Notes under the pieces: generated by a model
Databases searched by the model: none
What the model was told of the DNA's origin: nothing
What the model saw: the letters and a program-made list of their open reading frames with translations, nothing else
Made by a program: the position numbers and the translations under genes
NCBI GenBank assembly: GCA_964618265.1
Contig: CAZUAE010000002.1
Location: 71,520-135,519 of the forward strand
Length of the DNA stretch: 64,000 bases
DNA from: an uncultured Spirochaetales bacterium
Lineage (GTDB): Bacteria; Spirochaetota; Spirochaetia; CAYLLE01
Direction: 5' to 3'
Shown: positions 12,831 through 60,479 of the stretch, piece by piece
Layout of the letters: each line of letters begins with the position of its first letter
Position numbering within the stretch: position 1 is the first letter of the stretch

Positions 12831-12845
12831 ATCTTTTTATCTCCC

Positions 12846-13694: not shown

Positions 13695-13728
13695 CAAATG
13701 CCTCCTGCGGCTTTGTCACTCTCTTCTA

Positions 13729-27690: not shown

Positions 27691-29250
27691 TTATTCCAAT
27701 TCTTGTAAGGTATCCGGAGACAACGATACAATTTCTCCCGTAGACATTTGTACGAATAAACGGCCCCGTGCCGGAACAATAGGGGTTAGGGGGTCTACCG
27801 TTACATTAGATGTAGCTATTAGGGAGAGGTCATCATTAAATTTCGCAAGGACCCATTCTCCATCATTTTGAGTCACACCAAATAGATACTCTTCCCGATT
27901 TAACAAGGTTGAATTTCGATATACCTGCCCTTCTCCCCTGCCTAAAACGGTAAGCATAATGGGATCTAATATAGTAAGAGTTCCCCATTTAGATTCTTCG
28001 GAATCCAGTGCGAGGACAATAACCTCCTCGTTTTTATACAAATAGGTTCTACCGGCAATGACAGCTGTTTCAGCAGAACGTTCAGTTTTTCCGGTTATTG
28101 TATCGTAGAAAACCATTCTGCTCACTGGACCGTATGGTGTGTCCCGGACAATCATAAAACGGATTCCCGATCCAGCTCCATATTGGGTTAATTCAATTTG
28201 GCCCGTCTCTTCCTCCATGACTGCCTGCTGATCTTCAGCGATTTCCTCCCGATCCTCCTGGATATCCTCCCGCCGTTCCTCAACCTCTTCTTCTTGGTCT
28301 CTCACTTGTTCCTGTTGTTCTTCCAGTTCTAAAGCAGCTTCGTCAATCTCTTCTTCTTCTTCCCTCAAAGCTTCTTCCCTTTCCTCCAACTCTGCTTCCT
28401 CTTCTTCCCGTTCCTCTTCGGTCAAATCTGCTTCTGATAAACGGTCCCGTTCTTCTTCTATTCCTTCCCTCTCTTCTCCCGCTTCTCTCTGTCTTTCCTC
28501 CAGTTGTTCCTCTAATTCTTTGACTTTTTCCTCTTCCTCTTCTAGTAATTCCTCCTCTTCCTCAAGAACTTTCTCTTTTAATTCCACCATTAATTTTCGG
28601 GTTTCAATGGCCATATCCGGACTTTCCCGAAGATTTTCTACAACCTTATCGGTAGATAATTCCATGGGTTCAATAATTTCTCCATTCCTGCTCAATGGAA
28701 TAACCATTTGGGTTTGTCCGGACCAATCGCTGTAAAGAGTAGAAATCCCCACCATATTAGGTTCGAGATAAGAAAGTACTAAAGGCTTATACGCGGACTC
28801 AAAAAAAGAGTAATCCTGACGATATACCGCATTGTAAATAGTTATGTAATAAGCTAAAAGGGAAGCTGTTGCCTCATCATATCCGTAATATTCAGATAGA
28901 TAAGAAGAGACTATTCGCCGAATATTATCTATATGATCAACTTGTGCTTCAGAGAGTATCATGAAAATATCAGCGTCAAAACCCTCTTCTGTATCCGGAT
29001 CCACCACATGGATAGTACGGTATTTCTCAAAGTATGTATAATCATCATCCTCCACAATTTGAGAAGCAATAAATGTGCCGATTCCAGTTATCTCATCAAC
29101 GGAGTCTATGGCTTCGTAAGGACCTTGATAATTCTGAAATTCTATTGCTGCTCCTTCTACACGCCTTAGTTCTTCTCTTGCCACATCCACTTCTTGTGCA
29201 AAAAGGGGTATTGATAGAACAAAAAGAATTAAGAGATATCGTTTCATCAA
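27691..29250 (-). CDS. P83/100-family spirochaete protein with a long Glu-rich coiled coil
   Basis: Signal peptide, VDHIDNIRRIVSSYL and LAYYITIYNAVYR motifs of the P83/100 N-terminus; about 120-aa Glu-rich tract. Confidence 0.8.
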   Translation of the reverse strand: MMKRYLLILFVLSIPLFAQEVDVAREELRRVEGAAIEFQNYQGPYEAIDSVDEITGIGTFIASQIVEDDDYTYFEKYRTIHVVDPDTEEGFDADIFMILSEAQVDHIDNIRRIVSSYLSEYYGYDEATASLLAYYITIYNAVYRQDYSFFESAYKPLVLSYLEPNMVGISTLYSDWSGQTQMVIPLSRNGEIIEPMELSTDKVVENLRESPDMAIETRKLMVELKEKVLEEEEELLEEEEEKVKELEEQLEERQREAGEEREGIEEERDRLSEADLTEEEREEEEAELEEREEALREEEEEIDEAALELEEQQEQVRDQEEEVEERREDIQEDREEIAEDQQAVMEEETGQIELTQYGAGSGIRFMIVRDTPYGPVSRMVFYDTITGKTERSAETAVIAGRTYLYKNEEVIVLALDSEESKWGTLTILDPIMLTVLGRGEGQVYRNSTLLNREEYLFGVTQNDGEWVLAKFNDDLSLIATSNVTVDPLTPIVPARGRLFVQMSTGEIVSLSPDTLQELE

Positions 29251-40556: not shown

Positions 40557-42218
40557 ATGAGCAAAAATATTGCTGTAAAAATTCCGGCAGGTGCTATTAC
40601 AGTTCCCAGAGGAACATTAGTAAAAGAAATTATTACCAAAGAGTATTTTCCAAAACATTATCCTGAAATAGTTGCGGTATACTGCAATAATGAAGTGACG
40701 AGTTTAAGTTCTCCTATTGATATTAATGCCGAACTTAGACCAATAACTTTTTTTGATCCAGAAGGTGTCCGGGTTTATCGCCGCTCTCTCTGTTTTTTAT
40801 TTTCCATGGTCATTCGGAAACTTTTTTCCGACCGTAGATTGATAATCGGCCATTCTATCGCAAATGGATATTACTACTATTTTGAAAAGATCGAAAAAAT
40901 ATCTAATGATGAAATACAGCAGATTACCGATTTGATGCAGAAATATATCGATCAAAACCTGCCAATAACTCCTAAGATTTATTCTTATTGTGATGCGCAA
41001 AAATACTTTTCAGATAATAATATGCAAGACACTGCCATGCTTCTTGAACATCGGAATGAAAATAGAATCGGTATTCAAGCCTGTGATGGATATATCGATT
41101 TATCTCATGGACCGTTAGTCTCAAATACCGGGATTTTGGGTACTTACCAAGTTGTTTCACACGGTCAAGGGATGATTCTTCGATATCCTAGTCATGCAGA
41201 CCCTTTCAAAATACGACCGTTCGAACCAAGTCCGCTTCTTTTTTCTATCTACACCGAATACCAAAGATGGGGGGCGATACTCAATGTTAATTCAGCTGGT
41301 AAATTGAATCGGTTGTCAAAAGGTGGAGAGATAGGTGGTTTTATCAAGGTTGCTGAAACTCTGCATGATAAAAAAATAGCCGAAATCGCAAATAAAATCG
41401 AGGAGATGGGTGGGGAGGGCAAAATAATTCTTATTGCCGGACCTTCATCTTCAGGAAAAACAACGTTTTCTAAAAAACTTGCTATCCATCTTACCGTATT
41501 AGGATTTAACCCGAAAGTTATTAATCTGGATAACTATTTTCATTCCAGAGACAAAACTCCAAAAAACGAAAAAGGTGAATATGACTTTGAAAGTCTTTAT
41601 GCAATTGATGTTCCTCTCCTGAATGACCATCTTCTCGCTCTCATGAAAGGTGAAAAGGTATCCATCCCATCCTTCGATTTTAAAGCCGGTGTTCGAAAGT
41701 ATGAAGATAATATTATGTCGCTACACAAGAACGATGTTCTTATGATGGAAGGTATACATGCTTTGAATAATGATCTTACACCCGAAATTGATATGGAAAA
41801 AAAATTCAAGATCTACGTTTCAGCTTTGACTCAGTTAAATATTGATTCGCGGAATCGTATATCAACTACAGATAATAGATTGATAAGACGTTTAGTGCGG
41901 GATTACAAATTCCGAGGACATTTAGCCCTAGATACATTTAGAATGTGGCCAAGTGTACGGGCGGGAGAAAATACAAACATCTTTCCCTATCAGGATACTG
42001 CTGACGCAGCTTTTAATTCCGCTTTAGATTATGAATTAGGAATACTAAAAAATCATGCCGTAACGCTGTTAAAAGATGTAAAGCCGTATAACGAACAATA
42101 CCACGAATCTTTACGGTTATTATCTTTTCTTGAAAACTTTGTATCCATTCCTGATTCTTATGTTCCACAGCATTCGATTCTAAGGGAATTCATCGGGGGA
42201 AGCGGATTCCATTACTAG
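40557..42218 (+). CDS. Nucleoside/uridine kinase fused to a TGS/ThrRS-like N-terminal region
   Basis: VYRRSLCFL and YIDLSHGPLV (ThrRS N-terminal-like); P-loop AGPSSSGKTT; EGIHALN; DNRLIRR. Confidence 0.85.
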   Translation: MSKNIAVKIPAGAITVPRGTLVKEIITKEYFPKHYPEIVAVYCNNEVTSLSSPIDINAELRPITFFDPEGVRVYRRSLCFLFSMVIRKLFSDRRLIIGHSIANGYYYYFEKIEKISNDEIQQITDLMQKYIDQNLPITPKIYSYCDAQKYFSDNNMQDTAMLLEHRNENRIGIQACDGYIDLSHGPLVSNTGILGTYQVVSHGQGMILRYPSHADPFKIRPFEPSPLLFSIYTEYQRWGAILNVNSAGKLNRLSKGGEIGGFIKVAETLHDKKIAEIANKIEEMGGEGKIILIAGPSSSGKTTFSKKLAIHLTVLGFNPKVINLDNYFHSRDKTPKNEKGEYDFESLYAIDVPLLNDHLLALMKGEKVSIPSFDFKAGVRKYEDNIMSLHKNDVLMMEGIHALNNDLTPEIDMEKKFKIYVSALTQLNIDSRNRISTTDNRLIRRLVRDYKFRGHLALDTFRMWPSVRAGENTNIFPYQDTADAAFNSALDYELGILKNHAVTLLKDVKPYNEQYHESLRLLSFLENFVSIPDSYVPQHSILREFIGGSGFHY

Positions 42219-47522: not shown

Positions 47523-49508
47523 TTAGTTTTCAGTTAAGAAATGGTTTAAAGCATTGCTGCCAGCGGATGGGATCAGTATACTCGAATGATCTTTCATTAC
47601 CGATACTTCCCGGGGGCTGTCTAAGTTTTCAATACCCATCTCCCTGTTTATGTTTCCCACATATTCAAGCTCATCATTTTGCTTTACCGAAAATATGGCT
47701 ATGCTGTCACTTCCACTTCCAGCGATGTAGAGCTTCGCTTTATCTGATGAAAAATCCATACCTTTCGGACGAAACATACCTTCTATTCCGATGTCTCCGT
47801 TTTTATAATTAGAATGAAATGCAACAGCAGAACCGGTGAGGACATAATAGGATATGGAATTATCATAATATCCCGTAACATAGATCGCCGTAGATTTTTG
47901 ATTTATAATTACATCTGCAGCTCCATTCAATCCATCTACTCCATCAATTTCATCTTTGAAAAAAGTACTAAAGGTTAATTCACCAGAATTGGAATTGACA
48001 TTAAAAATCAACAATGAATCAGAAGAAAAGCAGGTCACTGCCGCAATTGATCCATCCGGGGACAAATGTAGGGAGCTAGGTCCTTCCATACATCCATCAG
48101 GTAACTGGTTTGAATCGATACGCTGAATAGGTTCGATAGAGCTGGAATTTAATCTAAATACAGAAATCGAATTCCCATTTTCATTTGCCACATATAGATG
48201 ATTGTCAAAAATAGCTGCTTCTCGCGGACCGTCAAGCCAAGGCTCCTCTTCATTGCTATAAATTATCTTGTATGTTCCATCGAAGTCTAGTATTCCAATC
48301 GAATCAGATTTATACCCTAAGACCACTACTCCGCCAGAATAGATCTCTAAATCACAAGGACCATATAGATTAGGATCTTTTACATACCCCATATAATTCA
48401 GTTTACAAAATTCATTATCATAACAAAAATGAACTACAGAATCTGAATTATATCCAGCGACAAAGACATCGTTACCCCAAAAGCCTACCGATCGAGCTCC
48501 CGACATGCCTATTATTGATGCTTCGCCATTAGTATAATCTCTATAGAAAGCAATTCCCCCAACCCATTGTCCATCCAATACTGAAAACCAAAGACTCGCG
48601 GAACCTTGAGATAATCCCGATACTCCGTCAACCACTGCATCAAGTCTGTTTATTACCATAAGATTTTTAGTGTCAATTTCGATTTTTATTCCTGTACCTA
48701 TTTTGATTCCATTCATATACCAATCGGTATTTTCTAAATCTCCATTGCCGTTAACTTCATACTCGGCGGTAGTGTCACGAAAAAGAATATCTTTTCCTTC
48801 TATGGAAATCTCTGGAGGAGGCAATGTGTCCACGTTCACTGATATTTCCAAGTCCGTCTTAAAAATTGTATGATCATCGGTAAAATCAAAAACAGCTTCC
48901 GTTGTAAAACCATTAATAATCCTTACTGTTTCTGTTGCACCACACTGTTTTTTATTATTGTCGAATAGTTCTATACTTAGTATATAGTATCCGGAATCAA
49001 CAGGATCTATGTAGCATGAAGCGCCTTCAGTGGATACATTTGGCTCACACTGAATAATTGAGTCTTTACCTTCCAACAATATTGAAACCTCTGGATTAGC
49101 CATAGATAATTCCGGCCACATAACGACAACATTCAACGATCCATTTCCATTAACCGGATACAGATTTATATTAATTTCCGATTCCTGAGACTTATATACA
49201 TTTACACTTTTACTTCCGGAAAGTATTAGATCACCGCTCCTATTAAAACTATCAACTTTTAGTTCCCATGGACCGCATAAAATATCATTAACTTTTATTA
49301 CATAGTTTGATGAATCCACCGTGAAGTTTTTTCCTTCCGGACCTTTACCGGATATTATGAAATCCACAGGTTCCATGGAAACCTCCGGCAAAACAGTTCT
49401 ATTGCCGTCAGATGTCAGATTTAGTTTTATAAGTATTTCACCATACTCGTCTGGAATAGAACAGGATATAAGAAACAAGATAGCTGTCAGGTAAATAAAG
49501 ATTTTCAT
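47523..49508 (-). CDS. Lipoprotein with a C-terminal lactonase-type beta-propeller
   Basis: Lipobox FLISC; repeated blades such as DGVDGLNGAADV..IYVTGYYDNSI and LYIAGSGSDSI. Confidence 0.7.
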   Translation of the reverse strand: MKIFIYLTAILFLISCSIPDEYGEILIKLNLTSDGNRTVLPEVSMEPVDFIISGKGPEGKNFTVDSSNYVIKVNDILCGPWELKVDSFNRSGDLILSGSKSVNVYKSQESEININLYPVNGNGSLNVVVMWPELSMANPEVSILLEGKDSIIQCEPNVSTEGASCYIDPVDSGYYILSIELFDNNKKQCGATETVRIINGFTTEAVFDFTDDHTIFKTDLEISVNVDTLPPPEISIEGKDILFRDTTAEYEVNGNGDLENTDWYMNGIKIGTGIKIEIDTKNLMVINRLDAVVDGVSGLSQGSASLWFSVLDGQWVGGIAFYRDYTNGEASIIGMSGARSVGFWGNDVFVAGYNSDSVVHFCYDNEFCKLNYMGYVKDPNLYGPCDLEIYSGGVVVLGYKSDSIGILDFDGTYKIIYSNEEEPWLDGPREAAIFDNHLYVANENGNSISVFRLNSSSIEPIQRIDSNQLPDGCMEGPSSLHLSPDGSIAAVTCFSSDSLLIFNVNSNSGELTFSTFFKDEIDGVDGLNGAADVIINQKSTAIYVTGYYDNSISYYVLTGSAVAFHSNYKNGDIGIEGMFRPKGMDFSSDKAKLYIAGSGSDSIAIFSVKQNDELEYVGNINREMGIENLDSPREVSVMKDHSSILIPSAGSNALNHFLTEN

Positions 49509-49591: not shown

Positions 49592-50404
49592 GTGATGCAC
49601 ATCGATAAAGCTCTTAAGCTCTTAGGCTTATCTTCTAATCCTTCATTACCTAATCTACTTGCTGCATACCGCAAACGTGCAAAAAAATACCACCCAGATC
49701 TTCATCCGAATCAGCAGGAAAAGGCCCACCGTGTCATGGTGCTTTTAAACAATGCCTACAAAATGGTTCTAAAGACATACTGTATAGAGGAACCGTTTCC
49801 GGAAGAAGAAATAGGTATTGAACGGGTACAGGAATCTGAAAAAACGGTATTGACTGAAGAATTTTCGAGGATATTTAATAAGCATTTGCATGTATTATTT
49901 GAAGGCATACTTACGTACTATCAGTATGGTTTGGAAAACGTATACCTTCGTACTGAAGGAACTCGGCGGATAAGGTATAGAAGAGCATTGCAGCAAATGC
50001 ATAAAGGTCTAACGGGCATGCTCAGAACAAAGAACTCAGCAATTTCAAAGGATGATATTGAACTCTATAAAACATTTACCGCTTTCAGTAAAACTTTTTT
50101 TCATATGGCACAATCAAATAAGAAATATGACCCAACTTTAAAAAGAAACGAAGCAAAACCGTATAAACATTACACAAAGGGCAGCAGATTGCTTGATATC
50201 GAATTGAAAAATGAATTTTTCCGTCCCTATTTCAATGACACCAAAGAAACAACGAACACTACTGTGATAAATCATGAGTTAATGACGGTAATTACTAAAT
50301 ATGCTGTGAGCGAATGGGCAGGAGAAGCAGTTATAAAACTGTTTCTCCTGGATCAATATAAACAAGTTCTTCGGCTTTATCGCAAGCATAATGAATATTT
50401 TTAG
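49592..50404 (+). CDS. J-domain (DnaJ-like) protein
   Basis: ALKLLGL..AAYRKRAKKYHPD..LNNAY followed by an unrelated helical C-terminal domain. Confidence 0.85.
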   Translation: MMHIDKALKLLGLSSNPSLPNLLAAYRKRAKKYHPDLHPNQQEKAHRVMVLLNNAYKMVLKTYCIEEPFPEEEIGIERVQESEKTVLTEEFSRIFNKHLHVLFEGILTYYQYGLENVYLRTEGTRRIRYRRALQQMHKGLTGMLRTKNSAISKDDIELYKTFTAFSKTFFHMAQSNKKYDPTLKRNEAKPYKHYTKGSRLLDIELKNEFFRPYFNDTKETTNTTVINHELMTVITKYAVSEWAGEAVIKLFLLDQYKQVLRLYRKHNEYF

Positions 50405-50434: not shown

Positions 50435-53056
50435 CTAACCCCTTTTTACTTTCTTCTTTTCTATATTCATCTGAGCAATAGCTAATTTTGCAATAGGTAT
50501 TCCATAGGGAGAACATGAGACATATTGAAGACCGATATTCCGTACAAAGGGAATGTTTTCTGGTTCTGCACCATGTTCACCACAGATACCCATCACGATG
50601 TCGGGCCTAGTCAATCTTCCCCGTTCCGCTGCAATTTTGATCATTTCTTTAACTTGATTCCCTAATACTTTAAAAGGATTATTTTCAAGGATATCAAACT
50701 CATTGTAATCTGTAAAAAATGAATTAAAATCATCCCTGGATAAACCATTTGTAGTTTGGGTAAGATCATTGGTTCCAAAGCTAAAGAATTCCGCATAACT
50801 TGCAATCTTATCAGCCTGGAGTACTGCAGCAGGAAGCTCGATCATGGTTCCCACCTTGTATGCTATCGGATCAGTATCCGCTTTTTCCCGAATCGCTTTC
50901 TCAATAGTTTCTATGCCCGTTATAGCTTTTCCTTCTATTCTTTTTCCATTCCGTACCGTCTTTAGCTCGTTAGCACTCATTATCAGAGGTATCATTATTT
51001 CAGGCTTACAATTAAATCCTTCTTTTTTCAGCTTATAAGCAGCTTCAAACAGCGCAGTGACCTGCATGTTATATATTTCAGGAAAAGAAATTGCAACACG
51101 TACACCGCGGTGTCCCAGCATAGGATTAAATTCTTTTAGCATATCACAACGGAACCTAATTTCTTTCTCCGTTAGTTTTTCATCAACTCCTTTCATGAAT
51201 TTAATGAAATCATCCATGCTATCTTTCGTATGGGGTAGAAATTCATGAAGCGGAGCATCTAGCAATCGTATAGTTACAGGATAATCACCCATTATTTTAA
51301 ATAGTTGATAGAAATCCGAGACCTGCATCTGTTTCAACTTCGCTAATGCCTTTTCACGGTCCTCTAGCTCTTGAGCAATTATCATGGAACGGAAAATATT
51401 AATTCGCTTTTCATTAAAAAACATATGTTCCGTCCGACATAGACCTATACCGGTTGCCTTAAATTTCTTCGCTAATTCAGCATCTTTTGGTTGATCAGCA
51501 TTGGCATGGACATCAAAATCGCCGATAGCCTTTTGGACAATTTCTAAATAGTCAAGTAAACCGCTGCCCTCGGGAGAAGGTTCGATTAATTCTAATTTTT
51601 CGAAATAAATCGCTGGAGGTTCGTAGTATGGTACGTTCAAAGAAACGTAATCCCCTTCTTTTACCGTTTTTCTGCCAATTTTGATGGAATTCTTCTCAAA
51701 TTTTATATTAGGCAATACCAACGCAACTTTGCCTAGACTTCTCGCTACTACCGGAGCATGCGAGGCATAACCACCTTCACTGGTAAGAACACCCTTGGCA
51801 ACCTCAATGGCCTTTACATCTTCCGCGAAAGTTGAAGGCATAACAAGGATAAATCTAGTATCTTCATTCTTCTGGCTTGCGATTTTATAAGCTTTAAGGA
51901 GAGAATCGGTAGAAAAATATACTTTACCCACTGCTGCTCCGACTGCACCCGCAATACCGCCTTCTGCACTCGAAACATTCCCGGTTTTGCTTAAATCGAG
52001 TACCGGATGTAAAATTTCCGCAAGTCTTCCGGGCTGTATGGCATCTATGCAGTACTCATCATCAATAACACCTTTTTTGTGCAAACCCAACAAAGTTTTT
52101 ATTTCTGCTTGAGCAGACTTGTTTGCTACCTGTATTTGATCGATTATCCATAGTTTTTTATTTTCTACGGTAAATCTTATCTGTCGTATTTCCTTAAAGC
52201 GATCCTCCAAATCTGTTGCTAATTTTTTTAGAACCTTCAAAATCGGTTTTTGAATTTCAGTTATCGATTTGCCTTTCGATTGAGTAGCATCGAACTCGTT
52301 CATGAAATAATTACCACTGATTTCATTATCGCCAGTGACTATATTTCGGGTATAGAATGTCCCGAAAAAACTCTCCTCCCCGTAATTACCGAATGTCATA
52401 GTCTGAATTAGCAAGGCGGCATCTTCGCTTGTGGCGTTACTTTCAAAAAACTTATCGAAGAGGGATATAACATAGGCAAGCTGATAATAGGCATCTTCAA
52501 TAATTTCTGAAGGGTAAATATTTTCTAACTCTTGAATTATTTTATCTACATCACTATTTTTCTTTGCGCTTACGAGCTTTTCCTTTATTCCGGATAGTTT
52601 TTTATTTCTTTCTGTATCTTCTGAAGATTTTAATTCTAGTTCAATAATTTTTGCATACACGTTCTTATATTCATGATATGCGAAATCTTCTCCGACAAAT
52701 GTACCGAAACCTTCCAGGGTTTTCCTGCATAAACCAATGTTGTGAATAGATATACTTTTAATAATGTTCAGCAATGGACTTTCCACTACTTTTATGAGAA
52801 GGGGGTTATCAGGATCATTAAATTTTTTATCGGTTATCTCATCCATCCTGTTTATTGGTAAACCCAATGCCTTTTTTATCTGTTCCGGATCTTTACTCAA
52901 CCCACGAACTGCTTCATTCGGCATCATGAAGCCCGGGAGAATCGGTGCATCTACTTTCGCAAGCTCCATTATTCGCTTACCCCGGATTCCTAGAGACTCC
53001 AAAATTTCAGGATTATCAATAAACTCTGTACTGCTAAATGAATAGTAGCTTTCCAT
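50435..53056 (-). CDS. PPDK-like PEP-utilising protein with a degenerate nucleotide-binding domain
   Basis: Intact His domain (GGYASH433AP) and PEP barrel (GLCRTEHMFF, IRLLDAPLHEF, NPMLGHRG, GTNDLTQ, GICGEHG). N-terminal ATP-grasp motifs are altered (LGIRG, IKVVES, QIRFT). Confidence 0.85.
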   Translation of the reverse strand: MESYYSFSSTEFIDNPEILESLGIRGKRIMELAKVDAPILPGFMMPNEAVRGLSKDPEQIKKALGLPINRMDEITDKKFNDPDNPLLIKVVESPLLNIIKSISIHNIGLCRKTLEGFGTFVGEDFAYHEYKNVYAKIIELELKSSEDTERNKKLSGIKEKLVSAKKNSDVDKIIQELENIYPSEIIEDAYYQLAYVISLFDKFFESNATSEDAALLIQTMTFGNYGEESFFGTFYTRNIVTGDNEISGNYFMNEFDATQSKGKSITEIQKPILKVLKKLATDLEDRFKEIRQIRFTVENKKLWIIDQIQVANKSAQAEIKTLLGLHKKGVIDDEYCIDAIQPGRLAEILHPVLDLSKTGNVSSAEGGIAGAVGAAVGKVYFSTDSLLKAYKIASQKNEDTRFILVMPSTFAEDVKAIEVAKGVLTSEGGYASHAPVVARSLGKVALVLPNIKFEKNSIKIGRKTVKEGDYVSLNVPYYEPPAIYFEKLELIEPSPEGSGLLDYLEIVQKAIGDFDVHANADQPKDAELAKKFKATGIGLCRTEHMFFNEKRINIFRSMIIAQELEDREKALAKLKQMQVSDFYQLFKIMGDYPVTIRLLDAPLHEFLPHTKDSMDDFIKFMKGVDEKLTEKEIRFRCDMLKEFNPMLGHRGVRVAISFPEIYNMQVTALFEAAYKLKKEGFNCKPEIMIPLIMSANELKTVRNGKRIEGKAITGIETIEKAIREKADTDPIAYKVGTMIELPAAVLQADKIASYAEFFSFGTNDLTQTTNGLSRDDFNSFFTDYNEFDILENNPFKVLGNQVKEMIKIAAERGRLTRPDIVMGICGEHGAEPENIPFVRNIGLQYVSCSPYGIPIAKLAIAQMNIEKKKVKRG

Positions 53057-53108: not shown

Positions 53109-54050
53109 TTAAAATAAATCTAAAATGACATCATGTCCTTGTTTTAGGAAGGCTTCGAACCTTGGACTTGCCCCTTCAAATAGATATCGCTTAAGTTTTG
53201 AAACATCTTTGATATTTTCTCCCGTTACACTAAACAATATAGGTGTTCCATGTTTAACCTTGCCCCACTTAAAGAGAGCATTAATATCATTAATGCGTTC
53301 ATTTTCATACCATATCAAAACATCAAGTCCTGAATATTTTGATTTATAGCTCTCGATTATTTTTTTCCAAGCCTCGACGTTACCGTTATGAAATAGTTCA
53401 TTAGTTACCACCACAGCGTTTTTAGGCGTAATCCGTTTTTTAACAGGAGATACCTTACGGCCTATTTTCTCTGTCTTTGAAACCGGAGTTTCTTTTCTAA
53501 TAACTGTAGTTTTTTGAGCGCTACGCGGAGGGCCCATATATGCCTTCTTTCCACGCACAATTCCGCCACTAAGAAGTTTAATAAAGTCTTCTACTGCTGA
53601 CTGAACCACATTGTCCTCAATATCTTCCGTCATAGGACCGCCATAAACTACTACGAGTTCGTCTTTAACGAGCGGCAGAACACTTTCCCATTGTTCTCTA
53701 ACCACCGGATTTATTACAACGAGTCCCGTTTGAGGATTATTATAAGTCATGACAAAATCAATATTTGTCCAGTCAGCTATTGTATCAACTATTTTTTTAG
53801 CTTCATCAATAGTTTCTTTCAAGTTATAGGACTTATATGCGTACCCATACTTGTCTACTAACATAGCACTTATTATAGACTTGACTTGAAAACGTTGTAT
53901 CTCTCCATTTTCCAATGACTCGTTCATAAGATCAGATATATTATCACCCCGGGTTATATCTGAAATATAGGATGATACGGTACGAAAGTGCCGCAAAGCG
54001 GCGTTAAAGCCGGCTTTGCGGGATAAAAAATTATATTCATTCTCTATCAT
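53109..54050 (-). CDS. Hypothetical protein with a C-terminal HPr-like domain
   Basis: Residues about 205-295 align by eye with HPr: VVVTNELFH221..., NALFKW, GTPILFSVTGEN. Lies 3 nt after the cfpA stop. Confidence 0.6.
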   Translation of the reverse strand: MIENEYNFLSRKAGFNAALRHFRTVSSYISDITRGDNISDLMNESLENGEIQRFQVKSIISAMLVDKYGYAYKSYNLKETIDEAKKIVDTIADWTNIDFVMTYNNPQTGLVVINPVVREQWESVLPLVKDELVVVYGGPMTEDIEDNVVQSAVEDFIKLLSGGIVRGKKAYMGPPRSAQKTTVIRKETPVSKTEKIGRKVSPVKKRITPKNAVVVTNELFHNGNVEAWKKIIESYKSKYSGLDVLIWYENERINDINALFKWGKVKHGTPILFSVTGENIKDVSKLKRYLFEGASPRFEAFLKQGHDVILDLF

Positions 54051-54053
54051 ATT

Positions 54054-56015
54054 TTATAACTCTTGCAAATCGTCTGAGGATTTTCCTTTTTTCCTGGAGG
54101 GGGTTACATCCGCCTTACCTTCAACATCTGATCCCTCAGATTCATTGAAACTACTTTGGGATGCATCAGGAACCTCGGCACGGATATCATCCTCATAAGC
54201 AAAGCTCTGAGAAATATCTTCCCGTACCGTAGAGCGTCTTCTCTTGAAAGAGGCAAACGCCGCATCCTGAAACCCTTTGGATACACCATGGAGGAATTCA
54301 TTAAGCACATTAGCCATAGAATTCAGAGTGTATTTTTTCCTTTTGATGCTGCAAATATCGATATCCAAAATCAGTCCGGGTTGTACATGATATGGATTGA
54401 TCAGGTAATCGAATTGGCCGAATTGCTGTTCCAGAAAATCTATCCGTTTATCCAGGATCACCCGTACTTGAGGATTCTCATAACCATATATCTGGCGGAT
54501 CCTTTCACGGGATCTCCTTAATATCTTCTTATAGAGATCCTTTTCATACAGATAGGTGTTGTTCAGTTTTTCAACATCCGTTTCCTCTGGTTTGAGAAAG
54601 GACATTTCATTCCACGTTTTTTCTTTATCCTCGTAGAGTTCTTCTTCCTTATTTTGCTTAATCTTCTTTGCAATAGTTCCTTTTACTTTTGCGCTAAGAT
54701 CGTCGAAATCATTAACCTTAAAGTTTGATTTGTTAGAAAGATAGACTGCCTCTACAACTTCGTTTACATGGGTTATTTCATTGTGGAATTGGGCGATTTG
54801 CTTATCGTAAGCTTCCTGTTCTCTTTTCAGCTGGGTGGGATCATAATATTTCATTCTCATCTGATATCTTTCATCAGGCAGACGAACTTCATCGGTATCT
54901 TCATACTCACGGACAACAAGTTCCCGGGCGTTTTTCAGATTCTCGATGTACTGGTATCCCATTTTGCTGGTATCGAGGATTGAAGTAAGGGAATTGATAG
55001 CGGTATTGAATCCTCTGTTTCTAATATTTTCCATATCCACTATTTTTTTCAAATTTTCGCGGATATTGAGAGGATCAAATTCGCTCGGGTCTATCTCTGC
55101 TCTTAAACCCTCTATTTTCTCGATAAGATTCTTTGCCAGGAAAGTATACCGTTTTGATTGTTCGTTATCCGCTTCATCATCAGTATATTCCGGAACTCTT
55201 TTCATCTTTTCGAACATGACTTCGCCATCGGAAAGTTCTTCTTTTCCTTCATCAACGAGTTGATCCTGAAACTCTTCTATTTCCCGGTCGATTAAGTTCA
55301 TTATCGTATTTGCTATTTGATCCTTTATGATGTATTCCACAGTGCTTTGATATTGAAATATAGGACTAATCAACTCAGAATCAAGGATGTTTACAGATAA
55401 TTTCACATCAGTAACAGTTTTAGGTTTTGTTGCATTATCCTTGAAGGCACACTTTACAATTGAATAGGCATTTTCACCTCTAATGAAAGCGCCTACATCG
55501 GCTTTTTGCCGTAATAATGCATTTGTATCATTTTCCAAATCATTAAGACCACGCTGGACATGACCTTGAAGGTGTCCATACATGTTTACGATGGACTTCT
55601 CTATTTCTCCCGTGTTGAATTTATCGGCACCGCCGATTGAGTCCAACATTTCGGAAATCTCTTTCGGTGTGTATCTCGACAGGACTTTTGTTTCTTCTTT
55701 GTCCATGTAGTTCCGGATCTTCTTAACCATCTCGTCTTCTGTGGTTACGATATACCGGTTAAACATGTTCTGATAGTTCTGATTGAAATAGTTATAAAGC
55801 TTCTCCTTGAGACCGCCCATAACATCCAATTTTTCTAATACCTCTTCGGGCAGTTTCACCATGATATCTTTAAGCATCTTATCTGTTTCTTCATTGATAA
55901 GCTGTTTATACTCTTCTTTCTGGCTTCTACCCTCTTGAGCGAGACTGTTTCTCGAACCGACTGCCGAAGGCTTTGTCGGATGGAAAACATTTGGACTTCT
56001 TGGAAGATCTGACAT
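54054..56015 (-). CDS. cfpA: Cytoplasmic filament protein A
   Basis: [52 protein letters not shown] and NPYHVQPG match the spirochaete CfpA family as I recall it. Confidence 0.88.
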
Positions 56016-56178: not shown

Positions 56179-58785
56179 CTATAACGATTGAATTTTATTT
56201 TCCACGAGTCTGCGAAATTGAGAACTGTAGGAGTTGTTAGCGAGTTTTCGCAGCTCTTTTTTAATTTCTTCTTCTTGTTGTTCATCCATAGAATTAATTA
56301 TTTCACTATACTGCTTTAAATCTTCAATCGTCCGGCTTTGAATATACCCGGCCGCTACATGCCATATCGTATCACCTCTGCTAATACGGTATTCATCTCC
56401 CTCCGGCATTATAAGAATATCACCAGGATATATCCAGTGTGAATCTTTAACTCCCGGTCTATTTTCAGTTCCTAATTTTCTGTAACCGTTAAGGTCAGAT
56501 ATTGTATTCGTAGTACGAATGATATCACTAATGGTTATCTCAAAGTCATAATTCTCCCCTGATTCACTAGTGTAATCAATTTTTCTCAACTCCTTCATGC
56601 GAGGAGTTTCAAAAAAACTATTCGGTATATCAGCTTCAGGAACTTTCTCGTCTTGGGTTGTATCAGGACTGATATCTGTGTTTTGAGAATCTGCAGAATC
56701 CTTTTCTTCACTTTCAACAGTAACAGAATTGTTATCAGGTTTCTCGGTTGTTTCCTGTTCGGTTTTTTCTACAGTTTCTCTTCCATTTTGAGCTTGACCG
56801 TTAGTACTATCTTGGTCCTGTTCAGTTTGTGAATTTTTTTCTTTACTTGTTTTATCCAACCCGGAATTCGAATTATCTGCCTGTGCTACTATATCGGCAT
56901 CTCCGCCAGAAACATCATCTCCTTGTTTTCCGTTTCCGCGAAAACCAAACCACCACGTCAAAAAACCTGTAAATAATATCAGTGCAACAATAGATGCCAC
57001 TGTAAAAAATTTGACGGGAAATCTTTTTTGTTTTCTCTTTATTGCCCCTGTTTCCTGTGTAGCATGGACCGGCGTGATCTCCTCTTTAGGCTTAAGTTTT
57101 GATGGAGCCTGTGCCTGTTCTTTCTCTTCAGAAAAACGGGACTGAGTCTCCTTTACTGATTCAGAGGTTCCCGGTATCCGCTGTTCCCTAATTTTCGCAG
57201 TGCGGGGCGGTTCCAACTCTCTGCTTAACCTGATAAGCCGCTCCCGTTCGCTGAAATAGAAGCTGTTGTCACCTTCGGGAAGTTCTGAAATATACCGTCT
57301 TGCCTTCTTTGAAGCTTGAATATCGGAAGCGGATAAGCCTTCTATCAAGAGTGTATAAAAACATAATATCTTCCCTTCTTTCTGATATAATTCACCTAAG
57401 AGCGGAATATCCGAACTGCCCAGCCGTTTAGTATTTAATATACTTGAAAGTTCAGAGGATATATTATTTAAAAGTTGGTCGTCTCTTGTTTCTGAAAGAA
57501 GGATAGATGCTGAACAGATATTATTAAATAAAGCTATGAGAACAGGATCCATATTACCGGAAATTTGGCTTAATTTAATTGATACTGCATCATCTCTTGT
57601 TTTATTTCCGGATATAAGATCATTAAAATAATTAATAAATATGTCTACAGTAGGAATATCAGTGGAAGACATAAATTTTTTGAATTTTTTTCCCGATTCA
57701 ATCACAAATTCTTTTATTACTGTATCGGTATTTATTTTGCTTTTAATTGGAACGTAGGGTATCCCAGTGAAAATGTTCAATCGCTCCTTTAAGGATACAG
57801 TTTTATCTTTTGAGTCAATTATGATTAAATCATTATTTTTTCCATTAACATTTTCATCAGAAAGCATAATTGGTCTTGGGAAATCTTCGTTATCTATAAT
57901 AATCTTATTACCTTGTTCATCATCACCTAGTTTATAAGAAAATTTTCCGCTAGTTACGCCTTTTGTATTATTTAGCTGATGGACAGTTACCTGAAACATC
58001 CCCGCTTTAGCGGACGGAAATAACGTCGTAAAATCCTGTATCTTTTTCTTGTTTTTTGAAAACAAAACCGCACGTGAATCGGAATATTTTTTTCTCTTTA
58101 GAAATCTTAGAAGTCCTTCATTTAATCTGGAAGTAACTGCACCTTGCAGCAGATCAGGATCAATACCGTATTTTGCCGCTTCCCGAAAATAATCCACCAG
58201 GACTTTGTCTGATACCAAGTTAGAATTTTTGAATAAAATAGTCGTTTCATCCAATACAATAAAACCTGCCTGATCTATTTTATGAAAGGGCAGCAAAAGC
58301 GGATCTCTTTTTATATGATCCTTCATTATGTCCGCACGCTGGTTAAAATGCTTATCCTGTAATTCCCGCTTCTTTAGATCAAAAATAACTTCATTATTGT
58401 AAGCTATGTTGATATTCTTGTTATCCATGAAATAAACGAGAACCCGGTTTCCATCAGATTTGACGTGTTTATAGTCTTCTATAGCTTTTGGTTTAGTTTT
58501 AAAGATCTGCAGGAATTTTTTAAAGTGTTGAATTATTTCCGAATCACCTATATATCGGTACTCACGTACACTTTCATTTCTCACCTCATAAAGTGGATTG
58601 CCTGTGAGAGAGTCGGGAACTATTACAGTATAAATATCTGATAATACTTGCTTAGGAATTCTGTCGGAAGTTCCAATTCTTAAAAATGGGCGCAGGTCTT
58701 GTTTATCTTTTCCAATATAGATTATATAACATTCGTTATCTATATGAAAAATGCGTCTTTCCGGAAATTTATCAAAATTTTCCAT
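56179..58785 (-). CDS. Bitopic membrane protein: large cytoplasmic domain, single TM helix, acidic/polar linker, periplasmic LysM-like domain
   Basis: TM FFTVASIVALILFTGFLTWWFGF (about 56942-57010) preceded by basic KRKQKR; LysM-like HWIYPGDILIMP..YRISRGDTIWHVA. Confidence 0.7.
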   Translation of the reverse strand: MENFDKFPERRIFHIDNECYIIYIGKDKQDLRPFLRIGTSDRIPKQVLSDIYTVIVPDSLTGNPLYEVRNESVREYRYIGDSEIIQHFKKFLQIFKTKPKAIEDYKHVKSDGNRVLVYFMDNKNINIAYNNEVIFDLKKRELQDKHFNQRADIMKDHIKRDPLLLPFHKIDQAGFIVLDETTILFKNSNLVSDKVLVDYFREAAKYGIDPDLLQGAVTSRLNEGLLRFLKRKKYSDSRAVLFSKNKKKIQDFTTLFPSAKAGMFQVTVHQLNNTKGVTSGKFSYKLGDDEQGNKIIIDNEDFPRPIMLSDENVNGKNNDLIIIDSKDKTVSLKERLNIFTGIPYVPIKSKINTDTVIKEFVIESGKKFKKFMSSTDIPTVDIFINYFNDLISGNKTRDDAVSIKLSQISGNMDPVLIALFNNICSASILLSETRDDQLLNNISSELSSILNTKRLGSSDIPLLGELYQKEGKILCFYTLLIEGLSASDIQASKKARRYISELPEGDNSFYFSERERLIRLSRELEPPRTAKIREQRIPGTSESVKETQSRFSEEKEQAQAPSKLKPKEEITPVHATQETGAIKRKQKRFPVKFFTVASIVALILFTGFLTWWFGFRGNGKQGDDVSGGDADIVAQADNSNSGLDKTSKEKNSQTEQDQDSTNGQAQNGRETVEKTEQETTEKPDNNSVTVESEEKDSADSQNTDISPDTTQDEKVPEADIPNSFFETPRMKELRKIDYTSESGENYDFEITISDIIRTTNTISDLNGYRKLGTENRPGVKDSHWIYPGDILIMPEGDEYRISRGDTIWHVAAGYIQSRTIEDLKQYSEIINSMDEQQEEEIKKELRKLANNSYSSQFRRLVENKIQSL

Positions 58786-59306: not shown

Positions 59307-60479
59307 TTGCTGTATACTTTTCCTATGATTATCAATGAAAAAGCAAAGACAAAGATTATACCTATTGCCAGCGGAAAAGGCGGTGTAGGAAAATCCTTCA
59401 TCTCTTCTAACCTTGCAATAAGCCTTGCGAAAAGCGGAAAAAAGACTACCCTGATAGATCTGGACTTGGGCGGCTCCAACCTGCATACATATCTCGGAAT
59501 AAAGAATACCAATCCGGGGATAGGTAATTTCCTTTCAAATAAAAAGATTTCCTTTGATGATATTATTTTTGAAACTGAATTTCCAAACTTGACATTCATA
59601 CCCGGGGATGTATTAGTTACCGGCATGGCCAACATAAGCGGAAATCAAAAGAACCGTATCATCAGCGGTATTGAAAAACTGGAAGGCGATTATGTTATAA
59701 TGGATCTTGCCTCAGGCAGTCAGTTCGATATTGTTGATTTCTTTTTAGTTTCTAATTCAGGATTTCTTGTTGTTAATCCCCATGCTCCCTCCCTTCTTAA
59801 TACATATTCATTTTTAAAAACCACAGTCTTTAGATTTATTCAGAGAGCTTTTAACAATAACAAGAAGGTTTCATCCTATATGACTTCCTTGTTGAAGGAA
59901 AAACAACCTGGAGAAATTCCTCCTTTTTCGGAAATTCAAAAGGAAATTTCCAAACGGAGCGCCCCTGTGGGCAGAAATGTAAAAAAAAGTATTGAGCTGC
60001 TTAAACTCAAGATAATAATTAACATGGCGGATCATCCTGAAGATATAGCCTTCGTAATAAAACTCAGAGATCTTATACAAAAATTTCTTTCCATAGATAC
60101 AGAATGCCTTGGTCTAATATACAGAGATAAAGCTGTTCCAAGGTCTTTAGATGAGCTATCCGTCTTTTATACTACCTATCCATCAAGTTTAGCTGCTCAA
60201 GAGATAGAGAGAATAAGTCAGAAAATTTTACAATCAGAGGATTTTCCTAATATGCCGCTTGATTTAGAATATTATAAAGATTCTTTCGAATTGGCAGAAA
60301 TTGAAGCCGGCAATGATTACGAGATCCTAAAAAAAAATACTTCTGTATCAAATAAGGACGAAATTGACACCCGTGAACTCATTGATATGATTACATCCCA
60401 AAAGAAACAAATTAATGAGTTAAAGAGTACGGTTCGGAGACTGACGATGAGAAATGCTCCGCGGAGGGACCGACTGTAG
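59307..60479 (+). CDS. MinD/FlhG-family P-loop ATPase (paralog 2) with a C-terminal coiled coil; start probably 59325
   Basis: ASGKGGVGKS, DLDLGGSNLH, DYVIMDLASG; C-terminal tail ELIDMITSQKKQINELKSTVRRL. Confidence 0.85.
   Translation: MLYTFPMIINEKAKTKIIPIASGKGGVGKSFISSNLAISLAKSGKKTTLIDLDLGGSNLHTYLGIKNTNPGIGNFLSNKKISFDDIIFETEFPNLTFIPGDVLVTGMANISGNQKNRIISGIEKLEGDYVIMDLASGSQFDIVDFFLVSNSGFLVVNPHAPSLLNTYSFLKTTVFRFIQRAFNNNKKVSSYMTSLLKEKQPGEIPPFSEIQKEISKRSAPVGRNVKKSIELLKLKIIINMADHPEDIAFVIKLRDLIQKFLSIDTECLGLIYRDKAVPRSLDELSVFYTTYPSSLAAQEIERISQKILQSEDFPNMPLDLEYYKDSFELAEIEAGNDYEILKKNTSVSNKDEIDTRELIDMITSQKKQINELKSTVRRLTMRNAPRRDRL

Follow-up and report, generated by a model that had tools for sequence, protein, structure and literature searches.

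A PPDK homologue linked to cfpA in spirochaetes combines a conserved PEP/pyruvate site with an altered nucleotide site

The window analysed here, a 64-kb stretch (64,000 nt) of DNA from an uncultured Spirochaetales bacterium, contains a gene for a PPDK-like protein which, although it goes by the name of PPDK in databases, is probably not a normal PPDK. The protein is a member of a Spirochaetota-specific paralogous branch of PPDK that has kept the phospho-carrier His and the PEP/pyruvate site, that has an altered nucleotide/Pi site, and whose linkage to cfpA spans the entire clade, deepest branches included. Judged from these sequence features, there is an even chance that the protein serves the cytoplasmic-filament (CfpA) system as an attached phospho-His module charged by PEP, and it would not be a nucleotide-dependent dikinase. 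The features of the locus are collected in Table 1.

Table 1. Genes and domains of the cfpA locus, in nucleotide positions of the window
Feature	Positions	Strand	Residues	Remarks
J-domain protein gene	49592..50404	(+)		270 aa, PF00226 DnaJ; convergent with the PPDK-like gene, 30 nt apart
PPDK-like gene	50435..53056	(-)		873 aa, intact ORF; PEP-utilizing protein of full length with all three domains, from the cfpA-linked clade of spirochaetes
PEP/pyruvate-binding TIM-barrel domain	50462..51541	(-)	aa 506-865	PF02896, 236 bits
Central swivelling phospho-His domain	51617..51901	(-)	aa 386-480	PF00391, 42 bits
N-terminal ATP-grasp-derived domain	52022..53056	(-)	aa 1-345	fold kept, catalytic set altered
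TP0747-family gene	53109..54050	(-)		313 aa; the PPDK-like gene follows 52 nt downstream
cfpA, cytoplasmic filament protein A	54054..56015	(-)		653 aa; NCBIfam NF040882, 1095.8 bits versus cut-off 500
868-aa gene upstream of cfpA	56179..58785	(-)		no family match; opens the conserved same-strand run

The PPDK-like ORF starts with ATG behind an AGGGG ribosome-binding site, and its product can be aligned to PPDK over the entire length (phmmer against PDB chains, MAFFT). The thresholds of the PEP-utilizing superfamily are exceeded for both PF00391 (42.1 bits versus 23.1) and PF02896 (236.1 bits versus 22.8); the PPDK equivalog model TIGR01828 gave 652.7 bits, which is below its cut-off of 843.45. 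The AF2 model (pLDDT 88.4, pTM 0.83, with pLDDT values of about 86-95 across the N-domain) matched PPDK structures in Foldseek with E values of 1e-58 to 3e-64 over about 900 columns (TM ≤0.73). The three-domain architecture and fold of PPDK, i.e., ATP-grasp, swivelling His domain and PEP/pyruvate TIM barrel, are present, even though a Pfam scan found no match to PF01326 (PPDK_N). Compared with PPDK (EC 2.7.9.1; C. symbiosum 1DIK/1KBL, maize 1VBG and Flaveria 5JVJ), the protein is of equal length, has the same three domains, shares 31-34% identity over the whole chain (Foldseek) and has the catalytic His and the PEP/pyruvate residues, Cys included, in common; unlike PPDK, it is without R92, the SMPGMMDT loop, D321, E323 and R337, and has Ala in place of T453.

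Residues were mapped in C. symbiosum PPDK numbering by three methods that agree (phmmer against PDB chains, MAFFT with canonical PPDKs, and hhalign), the last of which aligned the N and His domains of the clade with those of canonical PPDKs at a probability of 100% (E 1.3e-75, 452 columns). LGGKG reads LGIRG, so that K22 becomes R25, a conservative substitution with the Arg kept in 55 of 56 clade members; VSVRSG reads IKVVES (R92 to V91); the SMPGMMDT loop reads LNIIKSI-S, with G101 and M103 lost; DIEFT reads QIRFT (D321 to Q292, E323 to R294); and LQTR reads IDQIQ with a one-residue insertion, in which Q335 is kept as Q307 and R337 is Q309. From the nucleotide/Pi-site set of K22, R92, the G-loop, D321, E323, Q335 and R337, Q335 alone is retained, and the equivalents of Q240 (Q218), G248 and G254 are also kept. 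E323 is a Mg2+ ligand in PPDK, and the roles of the other C. symbiosum residues are likewise general knowledge; structures of the PPDK mutants K22A, R337A and T453A exist. The altered N-domain states recur in 53-56 of the 56 clade members in which residue states were counted, with the D321 and R337 positions variable, and the same positions are invariant across nine canonical PPDK representatives (mutual identity ≤59%); the changes are therefore neither chance nor sequencing noise. A first-pass annotation had listed these changes for the window protein, and its list stands for K22, R92, the loop, D321, E323 and R337, whereas Q335, which it had counted as lost, is kept and the change at K22 is mild. 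Its broader claim that the nucleotide/Pi-site residue set is gone is borne out by the threefold mapping, by the failed PPDK and PPDK_N thresholds and by the relaxed constraint on the N-domain, whereas its term 'catalytically dead' goes further and is an inference from sequence.

The alignment and phylogeny by which the first-pass annotation proposed to check its reading yielded a monophyletic PPDK-like clade (NJ tree, 135 representatives) in which the altered states recur. Relatives occur in at least 473 species genomes, and the best 80 of them are all from Spirochaetota. Nine other clade members scored 537-683 bits with TIGR01828, all under 843.45, and at most 26.5 bits with PF01326 (threshold 27), versus 1435 and 193 bits for the canonical control P0283; together with the window protein, ten clade proteins fall 160-300 bits short of the TIGR01828 cut-off. 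The ratio of pairwise identities in the N-domain and the PEP domain was 0.53-0.59 in the clade versus 1.02-1.06 in canonical PPDKs of matching PEP-domain divergence; measured against the PEP domain, the N-domain thus changes about twice as quickly in the clade as in true PPDKs. In the comparison with the closest relative, dN was 0.12 for the N-domain and 0.05 for the PEP domain with synonymous sites saturated, and on these rates selection on the N-domain is relaxed yet still purifying. Decay of the gene into a pseudogene was rejected, given the intact ORF, the confidently predicted fold and a dN far under the saturated dS. Among the canonical PPDK representatives the nearest is P0144, which is encoded in a glyQ/glyS context and tells nothing about spirochaetes.

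A newly conserved residue, K89, shares a predicted strand with the R92 position, which it precedes by two residues, and strand periodicity in the predicted secondary structure suggests that its side chain probably faces as that of R92 would. R25, K89, R294, Q218 and Q307 are conserved basic and polar residues of the cleft in the core subclade, where they may form a remodelled, metal-free anion site; they could also sustain phosphoryl chemistry in a residual or altered form, for example with PPi/Pi or, in the absence of Mg, with a nucleotide, which is a caveat to the mechanism proposed below. Conservation of the basic cleft residues does not extend to the deepest branches, and a clade-wide alternative catalytic set in the N-domain was rejected, as R25, K89, R294 and Q307 are constant within the core subclade only. 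The first-pass annotation had stated that alternative Lys/Arg/Glu residues placed in the ATP-grasp site by a structural model would speak against a dead site; basic or polar residues of the cleft are conserved in the core subclade, which counts in part against a dead site, while the basic ones are not conserved in the deep branches.

These substitutes could belong to a working PPDK with an unusual nucleotide site, in which R25 would replace K22, K89 would replace R92, R294 or other basic residues would replace Mg2+, and the full reaction would run. Spirochaetes have PPi-dependent glycolysis and PPi-dependent enzymes, and such a glycolysis would gain from a PPDK. The full-length homology and PPDK fold, the retained equivalents of Q240, Q335, G248 and G254, the conservative nature of the change at K22, the invariance of K89 in the core subclade and the purifying selection that persists on the N-domain all fit a working enzyme, and the T. 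pallidum literature assumes this function. A working PPDK is nevertheless hard to reconcile with the loss of the acidic pair D321/E323 as well as of the G-loop, R92 and R337, with an N-domain divergence twice that of true PPDKs at equal PEP-domain divergence, with the shortfall of ten clade proteins against the equivalog cut-off and with the lack of conservation of the substitute residues in the deeper cfpA-linked branches; we consider it quite improbable. The cleft could otherwise bind a new small-molecule acceptor, e.g., Pi (yielding PPi) or some other phosphorylated metabolite; the protein would then be a PEP-dependent phosphotransferase for which adjacency to cfpA is only a convenience of co-expression. 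For such an enzyme speak the intact PEP half-site, the more basic and metal-free-looking cleft of the core subclade and, as general knowledge, the use that spirochaetes with PPi-dependent enzymes would have for a source of PPi. However, the cleft residues vary in the deep branches whereas the linkage to cfpA stays constant, the relaxed constraint on the N-domain does not resemble that of a catalytic domain, and we know of no precedent for this chemistry in the PPDK family. A new acceptor of this kind is very improbable in our estimation.

In the His loop, GGMTSHAA reads GGYASHAP, with H455 kept as H433 (codon 51758-51760), and the phospho-carrier His is present in 56/56 clade members. The PEP-site residues R541, R597, D600, E740, N763, D764 and C825 correspond to R561, R617, D620, E745, N768, D769 and C831 of C. 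symbiosum (codons checked; that of C825 is 50582-50584). All seven are found in the 56 relatives, as is the His, which confirms the earlier claim of an intact PEP/pyruvate domain and catalytic Cys; among the clade representatives, 26 of 30 keep His433 and the seven residues, at identities as low as 33%. In the clade, conservation of the His and PEP domains matches that in true PPDKs. The Thr targeted by the PPDK regulatory protein (PDRP), two residues before the catalytic His, is A431 in the window protein, and across the clade the T453 position is Ala in 27 and Ser in 29 of the 56 members. The Thr-to-Ala change of the first-pass annotation therefore holds for the window protein and its subclade, while the Treponema-type subclade has Ser, in the loop GGY/F-S-A-H-A-S. 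As a further difference from PPDK, the clade gene sits in a cfpA cluster, and no PDRP (DUF299) gene was found among the scanned window ORFs or in nine annotated loci. Neither a second PPDK nor a pyruvate kinase was detected within the 64-kb window (phmmer of all ORFs; Pfam on 41 of the 43 ORFs of ≥150 aa).

The order in the window is (868-aa gene)-cfpA-TP0747-like-PPDK-like on one strand, which makes it a cfpA cluster; the cfpA stop lies 3 nt ahead of the TP0747-like start, and no terminator-like site was found between the cfpA, TP0747-like and PPDK-like genes (gaps of 3 nt and 52 nt). Among the best 80 loci, from at least 473 species genomes with a relative, cfpA lies upstream in 73, the other seven having too little upstream DNA, and the TP0747-like gene occupies the same position in 79, the one miss having a short flank. 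The same order is found in loci that were looked up separately, namely the Treponema-type L081 and L082, the deepest-branch L083/L084 (P0136, 37% identity) and L086; L085 has the PPDK-like gene some 7 kb downstream, with other genes in between, and L088 has an intervening 109-aa ORF. A homologue of the 868-aa gene is present upstream of cfpA in 38 of the 41 loci that have at least 5.5 kb of upstream DNA, and its product in the window shows a weak RodZ-like stretch only (E 0.0022). In the TP0747-like protein the N-domain is moderately conserved, the Pro/Ala linker is variable and the C-terminal domain of about 100 aa is near-invariant (alignment A3); homologues of this protein at other loci have PF27497 (TP_0747_N), a single-sequence AF2 model reached a pLDDT of 35, and a profile search of the PDB returned nothing significant. 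The J-domain gene is found downstream in most Spirochaetales-type loci and is at most a candidate member of the cfpA system. A ParA-like gene was rejected as a core member, being common nearby at variable positions (upstream and divergent in 16 of 41 loci). What had been taken for an oddity of one enzyme is instead shared by a family that is old, conserved and linked to the cfpA operon, which changes its likely biology.

The window locus shares its gene order with TDE0842-0844 of T. denticola and TP0748/TP0746 of T. pallidum, in which TDE0844 and TP0746 are named 'Ppdk' and TDE0843 is a hypothetical gene; the middle gene of T. pallidum we take to be TP0747, from the locus numbering and the Pfam name TP_0747_N. 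CfpA_C and TP_0747_N are both present at L081 and L082, together with a PPDK-like gene whose residues are altered in the same way, and L082 has pallilysin and VWA genes upstream, presumably the arrangement that surrounds TP0750/TP0751 on the T. pallidum map. By gene order, by the TP0747-named Pfam family and with L081 and L082 as proxies, TP0746 and TDE0844 would belong to the clade and presumably share its residue states. Searches with P0136 and P0282 returned environmental relatives only (Rectinemataceae and others), and P0282, which with 885 aa and a Pro655 resembles TP0746, was rejected as a T. pallidum protein, as it comes from a MAG. In T. denticola, TDE0842 (cfpA), TDE0843 and TDE0844 ('PPDK, putative') are jointly repressed (PMC3914990), and a published study lists both 'PPDK' and CfpA among the envelope fraction's major proteins; T. 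pallidum papers assign the PEP-to-pyruvate step to TP0746. This co-regulation and co-fractionation were published without comment in the two T. denticola papers, and no paper found in the literature searched remarks on the degenerate site or on the cfpA linkage.

Many database entries for clade members (JGI, NCBI) read 'pyruvate, phosphate dikinase', and the earlier warning that annotation as ppdK would mislead metabolic models is justified, many records and papers using the PPDK name. Many other NCBI records of the clade read 'putative PEP-binding protein' or 'PEP-utilizing enzyme', names that make no functional claim and are silent on the cfpA linkage and the nucleotide-site loss; such catch-all names show that the members bearing them miss the PPDK equivalog model. 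Unrelated lineages with degenerate N-domains, e.g., P0284 (Pseudomonadota), have been given the same catch-all name.

The constancy of the cluster also bears on whether the protein is an enzyme at all, as it could be a purely structural pseudoenzyme in which both sites are non-catalytic and which would serve the CfpA filament ribbon as an accessory subunit or as a scaffold in the shape of a PPDK. The universal linkage to cfpA and the abundance beside CfpA in the T. denticola envelope fraction agree with such a role, as do P0127, P0134, P0140 and P0145, in which PEP-site residues and/or the His or Cys are also lost. P0140 still sits in a cfpA cluster, and the maintenance of this copy beside cfpA despite the loss of its PEP-site residues argues for a family role beyond metabolism, a point that also counts for the phospho-His module described below. 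On the other hand, the invariance of His433 and the seven PEP-site residues in all 56 members and in 26 of 30 representatives is hard to explain without selection for catalysis, and the conservation of the His and PEP domains equals that of true PPDKs, which leaves the structural reading improbable.

Two other relatives help to place the protein. PTS Enzyme I (PtsI, 2HWG) shares the swivelling His domain and the PEP TIM barrel (Foldseek E ~1e-17), yet TIGR01417 gave only a partial match of 122.7 bits, below its cut-off of 341.7, and the HPr-binding domain PF05524 is unmatched in the PPDK-like protein, in which the N-terminal module is a degenerate ATP-grasp. PEP synthase (PpsA) shares superfamily and domain order, with scores of 108-115 bits versus cut-offs of 598-740 (TIGR01418: 108 bits versus 739.75), and it keeps a working ATP-grasp site whereas that of the PPDK-like protein is altered. 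Enzyme I has its His charged by PEP, while docking of the protein acceptor falls to an N-terminal module that is non-catalytic.

As a PEP-charged phospho-His module, the PPDK-like protein would run PEP + His433 <-> pyruvate + His433~P, and the half-reaction of Mg-ATP/AMP with Pi/PPi would not be possible, so that it would be no PPDK in the sense of EC 2.7.9.1. It would act as a phospho-His switch or phosphotransfer module of the CfpA system, with the basic cleft (R25, K89, R294, Q218, Q307) docking the phosphorylated His domain and/or a partner, e.g., the TP0747-like protein or CfpA, the phospho-acceptor being entirely hypothetical. Enzyme I offers an analogy, as it joins the same His and PEP modules to a non-catalytic N-domain that docks HPr, although no HPr-like acceptor has been identified here. 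In that case, the cell's PEP/pyruvate state would be what the filament system reads or what drives it. Such a docking pocket may apply to the core subclade only, as the deep branches are without a conserved basic cleft, and the association of CfpA with the PPDK-like protein is correlative, resting on adjacency and on co-fractionation, which can also arise from carry-over of an abundant cytosolic enzyme into an envelope fraction. To our knowledge, T. pallidum genomes contain no pyruvate kinase and no other PPDK, and if so, a metabolic role of TP0746 is to be expected. That a PPDK was turned, within the CfpA machinery, into a PEP-charged phospho-His switch, one that would use its former ATP-grasp cleft to dock the TP0747-like protein or CfpA or to phosphorylate either of them, and so couple cell division or the cytoskeleton to PEP/pyruvate, is a tentative proposal and, in this complete form, a somewhat unlikely one.

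The function of CfpA filaments is poorly understood, and an invariant operon partner with a PEP-driven phospho-His engine would provide a concrete, testable handle on it. If the reading is true, the family is a clear case of a three-domain swivelling enzyme repurposed by the disabling of one of its two active sites, in parallel to the design of Enzyme I. Should the nucleotide half-reaction be lost, spirochaete glycolysis is represented in flux models with a non-existent enzyme, and this would extend to the ATP-yielding step of the syphilis agent. The Ppdk of the T. pallidum and T. denticola reconstructions would make no ATP from PEP, AMP and PPi, and for the syphilis spirochaete both the final glycolytic step and the ATP yield would have to be re-derived.

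The PPDK-like gene encodes a full-length PPDK-fold protein in which the His and PEP/pyruvate half-site is intact and the Mg-ATP/Pi residue set has been lost. An AGGGG a few bases 5' of the ATG provides a plausible ribosome-binding site. Two domains and no others were recognized in the protein by Pfam, the mobile His domain at aa 402-447 (PF00391) and the PEP-binding domain at aa 507-864 (PF02896); the PPDK nucleotide-binding domain PF01326 gave no match even at an E value of 0.01. The NCBIfam PPDK equivalog TIGR01828 aligned over its whole model length with 652.7 bits, below its curated cut-off of 843.45 bits. In phmmer searches the closest solved relatives were C. symbiosum PPDK chains (E about 1e-138, residues 17-866 aligned). 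An AF2 model computed from a 59-sequence alignment was confident (mean pLDDT 88.4, pTM 0.83, N-domain blocks mostly 86-95) and matched solved PPDKs over about 900 columns with E values of 3e-64 to 1e-58, which indicates that the PPDK fold is kept. The top TM-scores were obtained with conformers whose His domain faces the PEP domain (5JVJ_A, 0.73, versus 0.50 for 1DIK).

Three independent alignments (phmmer, MAFFT with canonical representatives and hhalign profile-profile) gave the same residue mapping onto C. symbiosum PPDK. The hhalign comparison of the N-domain and His region of the spirochaete clade described below with canonical PPDKs reached a probability of 100% and an E value of 1.3e-75 over 452 columns. 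In the window protein R92 is lost to V91, D321 to Q292, E323 to R294 and R337 to Q309, and the SMPGMMDT loop (G101, M103) is lost to LNIIKSI-S. The positions replaced are invariant in nine canonical PPDK representatives sharing only 47-59% identity, and we take R92, D321, E323, Q335 and R337 to be required for the ATP/Pi partial reaction. The catalytic H455 is retained as H433, and R561, R617, D620, E745, N768, D769 and C831 are all retained as R541, R597, D600, E740, N763, D764 and C825, respectively. The first-pass annotation, which called the ATP/Pi-binding domain apparently dead, had listed the altered residues correctly, with two points to refine: the replacement of K22 by R25 is conservative, and Q335 is retained, all three alignments placing it at Q307, past a one-residue insertion. 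Its statements that the regulatory Thr is missing (T453 corresponds to A431) and that the PEP/pyruvate domain and catalytic Cys are intact were borne out. The crystallized C. symbiosum mutants K22A, R337A and T453A (PDB 1JDE, 2DIK and 1GGO) were among our structure matches, so these three residues have been targets of mechanistic work. The best-scoring solved chain in the PDB search, just above wild type, was the engineered T453A protein, because the window protein naturally carries Ala at this position.

Rather than being broken, the PPDK-like gene belongs to a conserved family. When 5.8 billion proteins were searched, more than 120 relatives with 61-100% identity were returned; every one with an organism name belongs to Spirochaetota, and none has a precomputed PF01326 match. 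An exhaustive search of 50%-identity representatives gave about 30 clusters that have the His-loop signature GG(Y/F)(A/S)(S/A)H-A-(P/S) in common and in which the SVRSG...PGMMDT, D-x-E and LQTR motifs are absent; canonical PPDKs appeared only under about 490 bits. Neighbour-joining of 135 full-length representatives, a crude method that left a short stem, placed the 30 in a single clade with no canonical sequence within it. When clade-specific peptide patterns were applied to one genome per GTDB species, 473 stretches yielded a relative, and the 80 best are all from Spirochaetota (Oceanispirochaeta, Alkalispirochaeta alkalica DSM 8900, Spirochaeta spp. and many MAGs). Nine further clade members scored 537-683 bits with TIGR01828 and at most 26.5 bits with PF01326, compared with 1435 and 193 bits for a canonical PPDK control. 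We then aligned 56 clade members, including Treponematales-type sequences (48-52% identity) and one deep-branch representative (P0136, 37%). The K22 position is Arg in 55 of them, the R92 position Val in 54, the E323 position Arg in 53 and the Q335 position Gln in 55; D321 and R337 positions are variable, and H455 and all seven PEP-site residues are retained in every member.

Outside the spirochaete clade, many PPDK-like representatives (P0159, P0168, P0173, P0176, P0179, P0185-P0190, P0195, P0205, P0216, P0284 and others) are also devoid of SVRSG/PGMM and D-x-E, yet keep the canonical GG(M/L)TSHAA loop; P0284 carries the name 'putative PEP-binding protein [Pseudomonadota]'. In the PPDK family, the ATP-grasp domain may have degenerated on several occasions.

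Within the clade, constraint on the N-domain is relaxed. Among the 120 closest relatives, the N-domain core has a mean column identity of 0.72-0.74, compared with 0.82 for the His domain and 0.84 for the PEP domain. In representative pairs matched for PEP-domain divergence (45-60% identity), N-domain identity is 27% in the clade versus 50% in canonical PPDKs, and the N/PEP identity ratio is 0.53-0.59 versus 1.02-1.06. The closest genome locus, L022, comes from an uncultured Spirochaetales MAG (CfpA 95% and PPDK-like protein 87% identical); against it, the N-domain has a dN of 0.12 and the His and PEP domains one of 0.05. With synonymous sites at saturation, selection thus remains strongly purifying. 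In the core subclade, residues R25, K89, V91, S93, Q218, R294 and Q307 of the former cleft are at least 90% conserved. On the predicted strand E88-93, K89 precedes the R92 position by two residues and therefore probably faces the same way. The deepest branches do not conserve the cleft positions, where L, N, S, F and D are all found. An atypical but active PPDK, to which the conservative K22R change, the retained Q335 and Q240 and the conserved K89 would point, is distinctly unlikely, given that E323/D321, R337 and the G-loop are lost, that N-domain constraint is relaxed and that deep branches show no conservation. We read the N-domain as having no catalytic job common to the whole family, and the core-subclade cleft as still serving the docking or binding of something anionic.

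Linkage of the PPDK-like gene to cfpA, encoding the cytoplasmic filament protein, and to a TP0747-like gene is clade-wide. In the window the three genes are separated by 3 nt (cfpA/TP0747-like) and 52 nt (TP0747-like/PPDK-like), and no terminator-like site was found among them. Using tblastn, the TP0747-like gene was located directly upstream of the PPDK-like gene in 79 of 80 genome loci, and cfpA upstream of the TP0747-like gene in 73 of 80; in every miss the upstream DNA is shorter than about 1.1 kb. The order CfpA_C, TP_0747_N, PPDK-like is present in two loci of the deepest branch tested (L083 and L084; P0136, 37% identity to the query), in L086 (P0277), in the Rectinemataceae-type locus L081, in L082, where pallilysin and VWA genes also lie upstream of cfpA, in L085 (P0278), with five genes inserted, and in L088 (P0140, with a dead PEP site), where two CfpA_C paralogues flank the PPDK-like copy. 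The TP0747 gene of L088 is split into ORFs of 177 aa and 109 aa.

The TP0747-like protein of the window had no match in our local Pfam copy, and its homologues in other loci fall into the recent Pfam family PF27497 'TP_0747_N'. In alignment A3, the N-domain (about 170 aa) is moderately conserved, and a Pro/Ala-rich linker that varies greatly in length joins it to the C-terminal domain (about 100 aa; VTNELFHNGNVEAWKKII...KWGKVKHG...EGASPRFEAFL). The latter is almost invariant in 33 spirochaete species, in which overall identity is 38-59% (81% for the closest relative), H221 is invariant and H267 nearly so. No PDB relative of this protein was found.

The 868-aa protein encoded upstream of cfpA could be assigned to no family and shows just a weak RodZ-like stretch (E 0.002). 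Its gene precedes cfpA in 38 of the 41 loci that extend far enough; the ParA/MinD-like gene is divergent from it in 16 of the 41 and nearby in others, and together with cfpA these genes look like a cytoskeleton and cell-division neighbourhood. On the other side, the J-domain protein has no further recognizable domain, and its gene, whose end lies 30 nt from that of the PPDK-like gene, is kept in most Spirochaetales-type loci and not in Treponema-type loci.

Elsewhere, a PyrB-PyrI fusion of 523 aa combines the catalytic domains of aspartate carbamoyltransferase (OTCace_N and OTCace) with both domains of its regulatory chain (PyrI and PyrI_C) in one ORF. The first approximately 290 aa of the 553-aa protein have no Pfam match, and the protein resembles a fused uridine kinase that T. 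pallidum and Thermotoga maritima reportedly have in common (PMC10248530). The window is placed on a spirochaete chromosome by a homologue of Borrelia P83/100 (293 bits), by two flagellar rod genes and by a lipoprotein in which a spirochaete-type lipobox (LISC) accompanies a lactonase-like beta-propeller.

Features of the window, with positions in the 64,000-nt stretch
Feature	Position	Strand	Remarks
Spirochaete hallmark gene	12036-13697	minus	
PyrB-PyrI fusion ORF	26109-27680	minus	Pfam domains
Spirochaete hallmark gene	27691-29250	minus	
553-aa protein	40557-42218	plus	uridine-kinase/PRK domain only in C-terminal part (aa 290-488)
Spirochaete hallmark gene	47523-49508	minus	
J-domain protein	49592-50404	plus	270 aa; convergent with PPDK-like gene
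PPDK-like gene	50435-53056	minus	873-aa ORF
TP0747-like gene	53109-54050	minus	313 aa; between cfpA and PPDK-like gene
cfpA	54054-56015		NF040882 1095.8 bits, cut-off 500; second gene upstream of PPDK-like gene
868-aa protein gene	56179-58785	minus	upstream of cfpA
ParA/MinD-like ATPase gene	59307-60479	plus	divergent from 868-aa gene

Published Treponema gene maps agree with this order. In T. denticola, TDE0842 (cfpA), TDE0843 (hypothetical) and TDE0844 ('pyruvate phosphate dikinase, putative') are consecutive and were repressed together in co-culture experiments (PMC3914990); in T. pallidum, TP0748 is cfpA and TP0746 is an 885-aa 'Ppdk' (PMC10013896). Synteny, the TP0747-named Pfam family and the Treponema-type proxies P0276 and P0282, which carry the altered residues, suggest that TP0746 and TDE0844 belong to the degenerate clade. 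An SDS-PAGE survey of the T. denticola envelope fraction identified band 1 as TDE0844 and band 3 as CfpA; its authors invoked inner-membrane anchoring for CfpA and made no remark on the 'PPDK' (PMC3931704). Our literature search retrieved no paper linking CfpA with 'PPDK' and none noting the degenerate site. The abundance in the envelope fraction would suit a purely structural pseudoenzyme, as would four lineages in which PEP-site residues (among R561, D620, N768, D769 and C831) are lost as well (P0127, P0134, P0140 and P0145), P0134, unlike the other three, having also lost the catalytic His. We nevertheless consider such a role unlikely, since the eight catalytic residues are invariant in 56 of 56 relatives.

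The window protein is probably still autophosphorylated by PEP at His433 and probably cannot complete the nucleotide half-reaction; it would therefore be no PPDK in the enzymatic sense. The observation made in the first-pass annotation is confirmed, and its interpretation, which had put forward these same two properties, is partly supported. With moderate confidence, we propose that the protein is a PEP-charged phospho-His module of the cytoplasmic-filament system. PEP would charge His433 of a module tied to this system, and His~P and/or a partner, for which the TP0747-like protein and CfpA are candidates, would dock in the old ATP-grasp cleft, which is basic and has no acidic metal ligands. 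PTS Enzyme I, in which the same His and PEP modules are joined to a non-catalytic docking domain, offers the closest working analogy. A role as a PEP-dependent transferase with a new small acceptor, Pi for example, appears very unlikely.

T. pallidum is not known to have a pyruvate kinase. Within the 64-kb window, neither a second ppdK nor a pyruvate kinase gene was found. Judged from sequence, the spirochaete cfpA operon has, as an integral and ancient member, a protein derived from PPDK whose nucleotide site is disabled. The PPDK-like clade bears on annotation and on how treponeme metabolism is modelled, and it provides a testable way into cytoplasmic-filament function.
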